The position numbers were made by a program, and so were the translations under genes. 64,000 bases of DNA from Eledone cirrhosa (Eukaryota): positions 216,814,001-216,878,000 of the forward strand of contig OZ024741.1 of assembly GCA_964016885.1 (NCBI GenBank), read 5' to 3'. How positions within the stretch are numbered: the stretch's first letter is position 1; each line of letters starts with the position of its first letter. This document shows, piece by piece, positions 29,770 to 48,812 of this stretch. The notes beneath the pieces were generated by a model that saw only the letters and a program-made list of their open reading frames with translations, did no database searches and was not told where the DNA came from.

Positions 29770-29892
29770 ATGTTAAAACATATTTTGCATATGAGAACTG
29801 CCATGTTTCCAGGTTTGGTATTTCTCCTGGCAGGACATTTTTTCTATGACTCAATTGCTGTTCCTTTCAGTGAACCAAATAATATTTGCGAG
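29770..29892 (+). CDS. First coding exon (signal peptide) of an AA15/LPMO-like secreted protein
   Basis: Polypyrimidine-AAAG acceptor at 29755; ATGs at 29770/29791/29803; hydrophobic MFPGLVFLLAGHFFYDSIA; perfect donor GAG|GTAAGT in phase 0, matching the next exon. Linkage across a 16-kb intron is inferred. Confidence 0.6.
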
Positions 29893-30416
29893 GTAAGTAA
29901 ATTCTATTTAATTTTTGTGTAAAGTTATAACCGACGTATAAGACGACTATTATCTGCGATATCGTTGAATTCCTGTATGTGTGTGTATCTGTATGAATGT
30001 ATGTGTGCTTGTGTGTGTATGTTTGTGTATCTGTCTATGTTCATGTATATGTATGTATGTGTGCTTATGAGTGTATGTGTGTGTGTATCTGTCTATTTTT
30101 ATGTATATGTATGTATGTGTGCTTGTGAGTGTATGTGTGTGTGTATCTGTCTATGTTTATGTATATGTATGTGTGCTTGTGAGTGTATGTGTGTGTGTAT
30201 CTGTCTATGTTTATGTATATGTATGCATGTGTGCTTGTGAGTGTATGTGTGTGTGTATCTGCCTACGTTTATGTATGTGTATGTGTGAGTGCGCATGTGT
30301 ATGTGTGTGTTGGGTTACACTATTGCTCAGTGGTGTTTCTGTGTAGTAACTCTTGTGTGAGTTATGTTACTGGTTAGTGAGTGTATCGGGTATGTGCTGT
30401 TATTATTAACTGGCTG

Positions 30417-31049
30417 GGCGGTGGATTGGCAAATCGGTAGAGGGTAGGGCGCCATGCTGACGCATAGAGTTACGGCCCTTGCCATTCTGAGTTCAAATCC
30501 CGCCGAGGTTAACTTTGCCTTTCATCCTTACGAGGTCGATAAAATAAAGTACCAGTAATGCACTGAGTAATTGCTGGCCTTGTGCCAAAAGTAAAAACAA
30601 TTATTAACTGGCTGGGCGGTGGATTGGCAGTATCGTTAGAGGGTCGGAGGCCATGCTTTGCAGCAAAGAGTTACGGCCCTTTATGGTCTGAGTTCAAATC
30701 CCGCCGAGGTTAACTTTGCCTTTCATCCTTACGGGATCGATAAAATAAAGTAGCAGTAATGCACTGGGATAATTGCCGGCCTTGTGCCAAAAGTAGAAAT
30801 AGTTATTATTAACTGAGTGATGGAGGGCGGTGGATTAGCAGTATCGCTAGAGCGTTGGACAATATATTTCGCGGAATGTAGTTACAGCTCTTTCAGTTCT
30901 GAGTTCAAATCCCACCCTGGTTAACTTTGCCTTTCATCATTACGAGTTCGATAAAATAAAGTACCAGCAACGCACTGGGATCGATTTAATCGACTTACCC
31001 CTTCTCGCCAAAAATTGTTGGCTATGTGCCTAAATCCGAAACCCTTATT
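30417..31049 (+). mobile_element. Three head-to-tail OK-like SINEs
   Basis: Consensus copies at 30417-30606, 30615-30811 and 30826-31049. The first two share the upstream flank TATTAACTGGCTG. Confidence 0.85.
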
Positions 31050-31627
31050 AACAGGGTGATGGTTGCATAGACTAAGGGTCCTTAACCTAGAGTGCTCCCC
31101 CACCCCAGGAGTGCAAGATTCAGTTCTTGAGAGGTACAGAGAAGAAACTAGAACAGAAGTCAAATTAAAGATTAAAATATTTTGATTGAATATTTTTTTA
31201 TTATTTTCAATCATTTGTATCTATTAATCATAGTAATTAATTAATTAGCAGCAGCTAAGTAGCTGATAATTTGAGCTGAAAATTCAAATTATTTTGTCTT
31301 GTGTGTTTGGCCTAGGTGTACGGGATAGAATTTCAAAATCTCAAAGGGTGCCACTATAGAATGACGTAAACAATGTGTTGTGTCAATTGTATTATTTTAT
31401 TGTTTGATTAGTGTATAGGATATATGGAGGTGTGGATAGAGTATATAAGGTTAAGTTGTTTTACGATATACAAAAATAAGCGCTGCAATTTTATCTCATG
31501 ATAACTCTTTCTATAACAAATTAACAGCTTTAATATGTTTTAACATATGTATGAAAAACCTTTTACTTTGCATGGCCACTTTTTGCTTCTGTACTATGAA
31601 ACTTGTATAATTCTTGATAATTTGTCC

Positions 31628-32345
31628 TTTCCTTCCCAGCTCGAGCCGGTGGGGCTGGACCGAGGGGACGGCAAAAAGCCAGATGGCATGACCATCTTTC
31701 CGTTCCACGGTGGTAAACCCCTCGTCTGGGATGCCACTTGCATCGACACTTTCTCCAGCCGCAACCTGGTGCAGTCTGCGACTAACCCAGGTTCTGCTGC
31801 ACGTCGGGCTGAGGAGGCCAAACTCTTCAAATACCGGTCGCTCTCTGACAGGTTTGCGGTTGTACTCTTGGCAGTAGAGACTTCTGGTGTCCTCGGCCCT
31901 AGGGCTACCTCCCTACTCACCACCATAGGCGCTGAGCTGGCCAGCCGCAGGTGTGAGCCTCGCGAGCTGGAATGGCTTTTCCAGCGCGTCTCCCTTGCCG
32001 TCCTCCGGGGAAACGCCTTCTCCATTCTGTCCGCCGGGGCTTTGGGGAGGCCACCAATATGATTGACTTGTCATTTTATCAGTCAGATAAACCTCTTCCC
32101 TCATCTAAACCTCTTCCCTAATGTTAAACAAATTATTGTTATTTTATTACATTTCTTGAAGAGATACGGCTTGGAGTAAAGCTCTTATAATGGAGTTACT
32201 TAACAGATAATATAATAGTATTGAAGTTTCCGTTGAAAATTGAAAAAGTCAGAGGAATGAAGAGTGCTCTATATAAGTTACAGAGGTAAATATTTAATGT
32301 ATAATAAACTGTATAATTATACTGTATTGTTTATTATGCATTAAA
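31628..32345 (+). mobile_element. 5'-truncated CRE-clade non-LTR retrotransposon (restriction-like endonuclease end, stop at 32062)
   Basis: GKKPDG...LVWDATC...AEEAKLFKY...LAVETSGVLG...LFQRVSLAVLRGNA is a PD..D RLE C-terminus typical of CRE. GC-rich island in AT-rich DNA; 3' boundary uncertain. Confidence 0.8.
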
Positions 32346-32520
32346 GTATCGGTAGAGGATCGGACGCCATGCTTTCCAGCATAGTTACGTCCCTTTACGA
32401 TCTCAGTTCAAATCCCGCCGAGGTTGACTTTGCCTTTCATCCTTACGGGGTCGATAAAATAAAGTACCAGTAATGCACTGGGTGATTGGTGGCCTTGTGC
32501 CTAAAGTAGAAATAATTATT
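32346..32520 (+). mobile_element. OK-like SINE (5' clipped)
   Basis: Matches the family consensus from GTATCGGTAGAG. Confidence 0.8.
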
Positions 32521-32777
32521 TATAAATATATATGTGTGTGTGTGTGTATCTTTATATATATAGTATTTACGTATCGAGAAAGAGAAAAAAGGGGGGGATA
32601 GGTGATACATATAGTCATTTGCCAAGTAGCGTATGCCAAAGGTGCTCGATACTAGTGCCGGCAGTATTAAATATTCGAAGAGTTAATATTTAGTGGGCTA
32701 GAGAGTTAGCAGAGCGTAAGCACGTGGGAAAGTAAAAAATCGGAGAATAGACCGTTAAAACATGTTTATTTAAAACA

Positions 32778-46398: not shown

Positions 46399-46432
<34 letters not shown>

Positions 46433-46735
46433 CGGTGATGTTATTGGTAGTGGTGGTTGGCGGTGATGTTATTGGTGGTGGTGGTTGGTGGTGGTGATGG
46501 TGGTGGTGTAGGTGGTGTTGTTATTGTTGTTGGTGGTGTTTGTGGTGGTGTTGTTGTTGGTTGGGGAGTTGTTGGTGGTGATGGCGGTAGTGCTGTTGTT
46601 GTTGATGATGTTGCTGTTGATTTTGTTACTGTTGTTGTTGCTACCGTTTTTTTTACTGTTGTTGCTGTTGTTTTTTGTTACTGTTGTTGTTGCTGCTGTT
46701 GTTGTTGTTTCTGTTGTTGCTGTTCATATTGTTGT
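46228..46735. repeat. (GGT/GTT)n degenerate trinucleotide tract at the start of the intron
   Basis: Directly visible. Confidence 0.9.
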
Positions 46736-47591
46736 TTTACAATACAAAATTCTGGTTAAAGTTATTTATCTAAAGCCCTTCCATCATAATTCCATGTACA
46801 AACACCAATTCAAGACTGAGAAAGTTAGTTATATTATCAAATTTCTACAAATTCTTGCTGAATTGCAAAATTGTTTGAAAACCATAGACAGTGTTTTTCA
46901 TGAGAAAGTGTTTAAGTGTTTATATTTATCTAAGAACCTTTGTTAAGTTATGTTCCAAACACCAACCTAATAACTTGAATGTTAGTTATATTACTAAATC
47001 CCTCCAAATTCTTGATTATTTTTTTAATGATTTTAAAATCTTGAGCAATGTTTTTCATTAGAAAATAAAACAGTGGACCTCCATCGTTTTCGATGATGAG
47101 TGTCCCAGTTGTTCGATCAATGGAAAAAGCCTGTTAATGAAATTAAACTGTAATTGATTGAGCATTCCAAAGAAATGTGTACTCTTAACGCAATTCTCAA
47201 GGAGATTAAGGGTGTGTCTAAACTGAACCTTTGAATTACAAATACAGACTAACCAATGGGCTTCCAAATAGATTCCGTCTACCCACAATTCACTAGCAAG
47301 GTATAAGTCAATACGAGGCCGCGGTAAATTACACTTGCCCAAGCTGTCACGGAATGAGATCGATCCCAGTACCTCATGATTGCCGAAGTGACTCCCTGAA
47401 CCATTCGTCCACTTCACTAGAAACATAACGAAAGAGTTAACATTACTAATATGATCATTATGATATCTTATATGATGATTCTTTAGAATACACAGGGGCA
47501 GTGGAACTGGTGTATATACGCTACAATTTATGTACATGTCATATTTATCGAATATCGAAGTTTTTTATATCTTGGTTGATATTTGATAATA

Positions 47592-47777
47592 TAGTTTTTC
47601 TACTTTTGACACAAGACCAGCGATTACCCCAGTGCATCACTGGTACTTTATTTTATCGACCTCGTAAGGATGAAAGGCAAAGTTAACTTCGGCGGATTTG
47701 AACTCAGAACGCAAAGGGCCATAACTATGCTGCAAAGCATGGTGTCTGACGCTCTACCGACACTGCCAAACCACCGC
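47592..47777 (-). mobile_element. OK-like SINE
   Basis: Reverse complement of the family consensus. Confidence 0.8.
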
Positions 47778-48147
47778 AATTGTTGATATTTGATAATATA
47801 TTATGTTAACCTTCATAGTAAACTGTGTTGTCATGTCATAACTTTTTCTCCACATACCACTATTTGCCAATTGCTAGTATGTTTATTTAGAGACATATTT
47901 CATAGGACATTTTGCTATAATCACTTTATAATTATTAAAAGCTGTAAATCTAATATGACCTGCTTGGACTCGAATTGCATTCCTTGACCATTTTAAAGTG
48001 AAAAGAGCTAAACTAAGTGAAAAGAGCTAAACTAAGTGAAAAGAGCTAAACCAATTCAGAAATGCTTCCACTGTCCCTGATATAGTAAAGTTTCCTTTAC
48101 ACACTCGAAAACCATTCTTTCTATTTCTTTCTTTCTTTATATTCCAG

Positions 48148-48812
48148 TGAATCTAACATCAGGTAGCAACCCCACAACGTATGCCGTCTGTCTGAATATA
48201 TCGGTTGAGCGCCGTTCTAAGTACAGGACTTTGAATATTGGGTTACCAGCTATATCAGAAAGGGAAACGTCAACCACGGAGAAAGACATTACTTGTACTG
48301 GAAACGGGGATTATACTAAACTTGAAGGGATAGAAAATTTGTGTACGAAGTACTGTTTAAATGGTAATTGTCCCATGAAATACTGCAGTTGTAACAGACT
48401 CATGGATATTAAGATGGAACACCCTTGTAAGCCGAGTCCTATCTATAAAGGGCTCCCTGGATTGGGAGAATGGTGTGACATCAATTGTGCGAGGGGCTTC
48501 TGTCCCTATAGCCATTGCGATTGCAGCGGTAGAACGGACCCGCCAACTACTACTGGACCGACGACGACAGAACCAACCACTACACCAACAACGACACCAA
48601 CCACCACACCAACTACAACGGAAGGGACAACTCAAACAACGACACCGCCCCCGATATGTGACCCGGTGGACACCTACGAGATTGTACCTGGAATGAAGAT
48701 GTGGTGCGATGTGAACTGTCGAGCGGGATTCTGTCCAGACTCACACTGCACATGTCGACCAGGAGGACCCGACGAGGCCACGACGCCAGCGGTGCCGGCC
48801 ACCACTGTATAA
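48148..48812 (+). CDS. Probable terminal exon: end of LPMO-like domain, three six-Cys modules and a Thr/Pro-rich linker
   Basis: Acceptor TTTCTTTCTTTCTTTATATTCCAG in phase 1, compatible with the 46218 donor. TYAVCLNISV aligns with EF..CADI.I; three C-x15-C-x3-C-x4-C-x4-C-x-C modules; TAA at 48810-48812. Confidence 0.85.

Follow-up and report, generated by a model that had tools for sequence, protein, structure and literature searches.

An octopod gene family derived from AA15 lytic polysaccharide monooxygenases and devoid of the copper histidine brace

The gene family at the locus

The window analysed here is a stretch of 64,000 nucleotides from Eledone cirrhosa (assembly GCA_964016885.1, contig OZ024741.1; C2:216814001-216878000 in the coordinates used below). 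Its gene, g1, is the first of five tandem copies, g1-g5, which by sequence comparison are derived from a lytic polysaccharide monooxygenase (LPMO) of family AA15 and have lost the copper site. This octopod pseudo-LPMO family, which includes mucin members, is real and conserved; its function is what we infer in the Discussion.

The exons of g1 join into 1077 nt, i.e., 358 amino acids and a stop codon, with an open frame and canonical splice sites, so that the gene model of a preliminary description of g1 (three exons in phases 0 and then 1, an open reading frame of 358 codons) holds. The type of exon 1 is corroborated by the neighbouring paralogues, all four of which have a signal-peptide exon ending in Cys-x before the GT in phase 0, and independent gene models of the Octopus sinensis and Argonauta hians relatives join the same exons. 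Exons 2 and 3 are covered gap-free by DNA contigs from three runs; the four sequencing runs examined cover introns, behave as DNA and represent at most two samples of one study. At 48420, the contigs of runs X2 and X4 (two of the four) have T for C at low depth, which changes His229 to Tyr. Signal-peptide cleavage scores best between Ala30 and Val31 (6.3) and second best between Gly22 and His23 (2.6), according to a home-made matrix that was correct in 66 of 95 leave-one-out tests; roughly, therefore, the previously suggested mature N-terminus without His1, starting at Val31, is favoured.

A search with exon 2 revealed the four further copies, all in the orientation of g1, at C2 216.911, 216.955, 217.031 and 217.081 Mb. 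Each is made up of the signal-peptide exon, a second exon of 92-96 codons with a phase-1 end and a single last exon; the frame is uninterrupted and the splice sites are GT-AG in all five models, and the identity of exon 2 to that of g1 is 20-41%. The proteins differ greatly in length: 358 (g1), 7,644 (g2), 348 (g3), about 2,460 (g4) and 304 (g5) amino acids, with 3, 5, 2, 2-3 and 3 six-cysteine repeats, respectively. Two of them consist of Pro, Thr and Ser by 86-90%, namely g2 (65% Thr, 23% Pro) and g4 (62% Thr, 23% Pro), owing to Thr/Pro arrays of about 7,000 and about 2,000 residues; the term mucin fits these two and not g1, since the corresponding linker of g1 has only 40 residues. The composition of the arrays suggests O-glycosylation. 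The cluster and its giant Thr/Pro members are additions to the preliminary description, which dealt with g1 alone.

Some peculiarities of the last exons should be mentioned. That of g2 (C2:216913672-216936182) is a single exon of ~22.5 kb; it codes for roughly 7,500 residues, the bulk of which form Thr-Thr-Thr-Pro repeats. In g4, a part of the last exon is duplicated out of frame (C2:217034078-217034430 and 217040800-217041150) and followed by a stop and more Pro/Thr repeats; this is either a degenerate duplicate or an assembly error, and because of it the end of g4, including the hydrophobic end of the model, is uncertain. The tail of g3 (C2:216957398-216958044) is His/Tyr-rich around the repeats; its last, charged segment is also conserved in A. 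hians, and the tail may have a role of its own.

Descent from AA15

Against a profile of normal AA15 domains, the first 200 residues of g1 reach 30.2 bits; among 1000 shuffles the highest score was 6.8. The profile comprises 111 domains: 106 of 119 database matches and five built from this genome; among the 13 controls dropped, seven have the His1 motif and 11 the His2 motif. With exon 2 alone, TdAA15A (5msz) is the best of three Protein Data Bank (PDB) matches (E=0.0065), and it is the sole PDB match of the profile of the five paralogue exons (E=1.8e-5). Profile-profile alignment of the family with normal AA15s by hhalign gives a probability of 97.85% (E=6e-13, 103 columns). The exon layout of g1 (three exons, phases 0/1) is that of all five normal AA15 genes built from this genome, in which His-Gly follows the signal peptide, and the phase-1 intron sits five codons past the conserved Trp in both groups. 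The earlier assignment of g1 to the AA15 scaffold is thus borne out by the profile scores and the shared intron phases. Recognition by an LPMO model, proposed as a check, succeeded with our own AA15 profile and failed with Pfam: none of the three g1 exons reaches the cut-off of PF03067 (23 bits), the relatives of g1 score at most 13.7 bits, and a genome scan with PF03067 found seven loci above the cut-off, none of them inside the cluster.

The database relatives are O. sinensis XP_036364626.1 and XP_029645183.1, A. hians GAB1603673.1 and GAB1603675.1, and the Logan record P0009. The four proteins of O. sinensis and A. hians are annotated as uncharacterized or hypothetical, and their gene models are devoid of His1. 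Over the whole length, g3 is 66% identical to GAB1603673.1 (220/333); g2 is 51% identical to GAB1603675.1 over 353 aligned residues, and g5 is 43% identical to XP_029645183.1. These four relatives are from octopods, the genomes of squid, cuttlefish and nautilus lying outside the search. A protein search with exon 3 passed none of 8,000 candidates, probably being crowded by Thr-rich words.

Two trees were built from 97 columns of the exon-2 core with 40 and 31 controls. All brace-less proteins of the family fall on one side of a long branch (support 100/100), with g1 branching first within the family. Pairs across species are g2 with P0007, g3 with P0004/P0005 and g5 with P0006; since each of these three copies pairs with another species, the duplications preceded the Octopus/Argonauta split. 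Owing to the short alignment and the long branch, the tree does not single out the parent AA15.

Two other sequences deserve attention. The record P0009 has a family-like exon without His2 and retains the N-terminal CxxC; its branch is long and its placement unsure, and its sequence possibly represents an intermediate stage of erosion. A second AA15-like gene without His2 is located at C2:154075162-154075530 and 154080279-154081490 (loci L068-L069); its exon 2 has near-normal length, Gln and Phe are kept, there are two six-cysteine repeats, and the first exon was not found. The gene lies outside the family on the tree, and therefore its loss of His2 looks independent.

Loss of the copper site

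AA15 enzymes are characterised by His1, His91, Ala89, Tyr184, the surface residues Tyr24 and Tyr/Trp166, and ten cysteines (PMC5823890, PMC9156745). The second histidine is present in 111 of 111 normal domains and in none of the eight family domains; in g1, the family-AA15 alignment places Phe74 at the His2 site and Asp72 at the Ala site. The Gln/Glu site (Gln in 103/111 and Glu in 111/111 controls) is occupied by Pro146-Thr147. The axial Phe/Tyr, found in all 111 controls, is retained as Tyr149 in g1; four of the five paralogues have Tyr here, and g2 does not. Thus, the preliminary description correctly took the PTTY segment to have lost the Gln/Glu, and it overlooked that the Tyr of this segment is the axial residue. 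We note that His1 counts in the controls would be circular, as the control domains had been cut at His1.

Three segments are missing from the family, namely the His1 segment, the beginning of exon 2 and the Trp166 loop, the latter two each including a Cys pair. In all, some 60-70 residues and four of the ten cysteines (two disulfide pairs) are lost. The distance from the first to the last Cys is 105-113 residues in the family, while that from His1 to the last Cys is 184-200 in normal AA15s. Both segments carrying the surface aromatics (Tyr24 in 99/111 controls, Trp/Tyr166 in 106/111) are deleted. The domain contains six cysteines in each of the five paralogues and 10-12 in the five normal AA15 genes of the genome, so the former statement that all cysteines are intact in g1 is wrong with respect to AA15. 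The eight family domains agree without exception in eight residues: six Cys, one Phe and one Trp. These domains share no conserved His column; the best one is occupied in three of eight rows, within the CxxC.

A hidden His1 exon near g1 was considered and rejected. None of the five family exons 1 contains a His-Gly motif, and the profile of the His1 exon reaches at most 6.9 bits over the 404 kb around the cluster versus 65-80 bits at five control loci. For the other two missing segments, the profiles over the same 404 kb yield at most 10.5 and 9.0 bits versus 41-62 and 37-59 bits at the control loci. Consequently, an upstream exon supplying His1, which had been named as the observation that would overturn the claim, was not found in this region, and the loss of the entire brace (His1, His2, Ala and Gln/Glu), of the His in the second-His segment and of the N-terminal region is confirmed. 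LPMO chemistry requires the histidine brace; since it is absent, oxidative activity is not expected, and judged by sequence the loss of catalysis in the family is well supported. By the defining features, the aligned sequences are no longer those of AA15 members, though descended from AA15.

Features of g1 and of the window are listed in Table 1.

Table 1. Coordinates of the g1 gene and other features of the window
Feature	Position	Strand	Description
Exon 1	29770..29892	+	ATG start, signal peptide, short mature N-terminus without His1, Cys40; phase-0 donor GTAAGT
Intron 1	29893..45929	+	16,037 nt, GT-AG; no AA15 N-terminal remnant detected inside
Exon 2	45930..46218	+	Core of the putative AA15-derived beta-sandwich; AG acceptor, phase-1 donor GTAGGT; Asp72 (Ala89 site), Phe74 (His91 site), Cys83, 96, 126, 129, Trp133
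Intron 2	46219..48147	+	1,929 nt, GT-AG
Exon 3	48148..48812	+	AG acceptor, ends with TAA
Start of exon 3	48148..48203	+	Last domain strand; Pro146 (Gln site), Tyr149 (axial Phe/Tyr site), Cys152; Trp166 loop and its Cys pair absent
Six-cysteine repeat 1	48294..48392	+	Residues 187-219; Leu in place of the conserved Trp
Six-cysteine repeat 2	48426..48524	+	Residues 231-263
Thr/Pro-rich linker	48534..48653	+	40 residues, 85% T+P; O-glycosylation suggested by composition
Six-cysteine repeat 3	48657..48755	+	Residues 308-340; modelled with confidence as a small strand-helix-strand unit, for which PDB gave no match
Stop codon	48810..48812	+	TAA
Tandem array	17252-21431		45-bp unit, 92.9 copies, 98% matches; adjoins a remnant resembling a long interspersed nuclear element
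Open reading frames in intron 1	35720-37862	+	Penelope-like by eye; no Pfam match
Retroelement remnant	49158-53231	-	RVT_1 match at 49158-49793, E=3.5e-14
Retroelement remnant	60450-61889	-	Weak match

Discussion

We presume, with a probability of roughly 0.55, that the family consists of non-catalytic secreted matrix proteins located on chitin surfaces, with the repeats anchoring them to chitin and the Thr/Pro regions carrying O-glycans. The tandem family of five descends from an AA15 LPMO and has lost the brace; with the oxidative activity presumably gone, the head may have been reused as a stable immunoglobulin-like (Ig-like) spacer or protein-interaction module. Since the AA15 binding face is gone as well (Tyr24, Tyr/Trp166 and their loops), an LPMO-like mode of chitin binding is improbable for the head; of the earlier proposal of a non-catalytic AA15 derivative that binds chitin, the first part stands, and binding by the LPMO-like domain itself is not supported. 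The anchoring would rather be the task of the six-cysteine repeats. Such repeats occur in 63 of 119 normal AA15s, to the best of which the three repeats of g1 are 46-54% identical, and all five copies keep them with the conserved aromatics. By analogy, the family could coat, lubricate or organise a chitinous layer, such as the sucker cuticle, the foregut lining, the beak or the radula, in a mode resembling that of insect peritrophin-type mucins. The chitinous cuticle of octopus suckers is continuously renewed (PMC3869157). The wider proposal, that octopods made a new secreted mucin/matrix class from a chitin-cutting copper enzyme by combining an LPMO-derived Ig-like head, a previously undescribed six-cysteine module that binds chitin, and Thr/Pro arrays reaching about 7,000 residues for renewable chitin surfaces, e.g., the sucker cuticle, is tentative, and we would give it somewhat less than even odds.

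A number of points weigh against the matrix role on chitin. The parent enzyme already had the repeat, and finding it in the family is therefore no evidence of a role on chitin. It is often associated with chitin binding and unrelated to CBM14, as stated in PMC9156745, and the accessible portion of the literature on it contains no chitin-binding test that we could find. Exon 3 and the relatives have no Pfam match, hence no CBM14 domain. Repeat 1 of g1 is devoid of the Trp seen in 65 of 82 normal repeats, and the 40-residue linker of g1 resembles ordinary AA15 linkers. As their tails differ widely, that of g3 being His/Tyr-rich, the paralogues may serve more than one role. The protein databases searched yielded no orthologue of g1 or g4. 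The nonsynonymous to synonymous ratio (dN/dS), proposed as a check on orthologues and calculated here for exon 2 of paralogues g1-g4, is about 0.2-0.3 in five of six pairs (dN 0.50-0.71, dS 1.8-3.4 or saturated; the sixth pair saturated), a value consistent with constraint and rough because dS is near saturation.

The structural evidence is similarly divided. The head of the family is predicted to be a seven-stranded Ig-like sandwich; the model was computed on the A. hians orthologue of g3 from an alignment of 86 rows, mostly normal AA15s, and the predicted local distance difference test (pLDDT) is about 89-95 for residues 61-130, with residues 23-48 partly of low confidence. The comparison with AA15 structures proposed earlier ranked LPMOs first and did not separate them from Ig domains: TdAA15A is the top of 48,161 chains in VIA (Z 8.0, root-mean-square deviation 3.5, 116 aligned, from chain residue 36), plain Ig domains tie with it at Z 7.0-7.7, and two LPMOs rank first in Foldseek with none at E<=0.001. 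The third repeat of g1 is modelled as strand-helix-strand (pLDDT 86); it has no Foldseek match, a best VIA Z of 2.1 and no ESM Atlas match, which does not establish a new fold. ESM Atlas lists, at 0.87 versus the head domain, a cluster of 138 short proteins that are mostly from molluscs and of which 36% have a BIM1-like domain; it is a lead to other LPMO-like mollusc proteins.

The tie with Ig domains, the loss of the AA15 chitin-binding face and the Pro/Thr/Ser content of g2 and g4 would also suit secreted mucins or gland proteins independent of chitin (skin mucus, egg coat, salivary or nidamental-type), the head and repeats serving as assembly or cross-linking modules. We consider this unlikely: the AA15-linked repeats with their aromatics are retained in five of five copies, and the head cysteines are invariant and even in number, leaving no spare conserved Cys for linking chains. 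It is improbable that the short members g1, g3 and g5 are instead glycan-recognition or defence proteins directed, e.g., at microbial or prey chitin in saliva or gut. They are indeed small, predicted to be secreted, Cys-rich and fast diverging, as the values for exon 2 and for g5 versus its O. sinensis orthologue indicate; however, g3 is well conserved (66%), the sole defence-type Pfam match, PF14861, is far below the cut-off (E=0.076), and the giant Thr/Pro arrays of neighbouring copies speak for a matrix role.

Nor do we give much credit to the view that g1 is an unexpressed or decaying duplicate in an otherwise functional family. It would agree with the failure to find an orthologue and with exon junctions known from genomic sequence alone; yet the frame of 1,077 nt is open with canonical splice sites, g1 is the first branch of the family, and all eight family-invariant residues are kept despite ~60% divergence from the closest paralogue. 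Low dN/dS, open frames and invariant cysteines argue for function in general, and the opinion that g1 is an intact gene and no pseudogene is upheld by its open frame, the five open paralogue models and the conservation across octopods. Least probable, with only a slight chance in our estimate, is a rebuilt metal site, e.g., an N-terminal His23 after cleavage at Gly22 in the manner of X325/BIM1 proteins. In its favour, this cleavage is the second best (2.6 vs 6.3), LPMO-like and BIM1-like clusters occur, as leads only, among the language-model look-alikes (0.85-0.90), and CopC/CrdA folds are present among weak Foldseek rows for the head model. Against it stand the absence of a conserved His column outside three rows of the CxxC, Phe74 at the His2 position, and His80 of g1, whose counterparts in the paralogues are hydrophobic residues.

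If a matrix role on chitin is true, the family would clearly exemplify the reuse of an animal LPMO for structural or mucin functions, and its members are candidate components of octopus cuticle or mucus. Stages of the erosion would be visible in the full-length copy without His2 (C2:154.075 Mb), the relative with the N-terminal CxxC (P0009) and the five fully stripped copies. Since the repeat outlived the catalytic site, the family offers a natural test of the role of this widespread AA15 module. The scores of the proteins stay under the Pfam thresholds, and annotation lists them as uncharacterized. A literature search, to which subscription papers were mostly inaccessible, returned no description of brace-less AA15s in cephalopods and no match for the gene id LOC115219204; in the part searched of the O. 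vulgaris skin-mucus supplement, the family accessions and two peptides were not found, nor were the family gene ids in the parts searched of the supplements of PMC9712504 and PMC9699675, and the main text of the argonaut eggcase preprint does not mention the family.

Comparison with known systems

With the AA15 LPMOs, represented by TdAA15A (5msz; Sabbadin et al. 2018, PMC5823890), g1 shares the signal peptide, the putative beta-sandwich core, six of ten cysteines, the axial aromatic and three exons in phases 0/1. It differs from them in having no His1, His91, Ala89, Gln/Glu, Tyr24 or Tyr/Trp166, in the shorter domain and in the score below the PF03067 cut-off. The repeat C-X15-C-X3-C-Xn-C-X4-C-X1-C after a Thr-rich linker is common to g1 and to Group I LPMO15-1 and molluscan AA15s, which carry it C-terminally. 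The brace, lost in g1, is intact in these proteins, and they are either active or required for moulting (PMC9156745, PMC12955341). The family has n=4 in this formula and 2-5 repeats, and in two paralogues a linker of thousands of residues, in contrast to Group I LPMO15-1.

A natural brace-less LPMO homologue would have a precedent in the Arg1 AA9 proteins, attributed to Frandsen et al. 2019; these are fungal and reportedly lost the histidine brace by a single substitution, that of His1, in a domain of full size. In the g1 family, as opposed to this case, the whole copper and substrate face is deleted, and we deal with an animal tandem family with mucin tails. The X325/BIM1 proteins are short, LPMO-like in fold and inactive as LPMOs, and they bind copper at a site formed by a retained His1 and a second His/Asp; the short LPMO-like fold would be common to both, whereas the g1 family has no conserved His. 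Pfam PF20238 appears in the ESM Atlas look-alike listing for the head. Finally, peritrophin-type invertebrate mucins are secreted and combine small six-Cys modules (CBM14) with long Thr/Pro regions. The g1 family resembles them in both respects and differs in the module, which is CBM14 in these mucins and a repeat with no Pfam match in the family.

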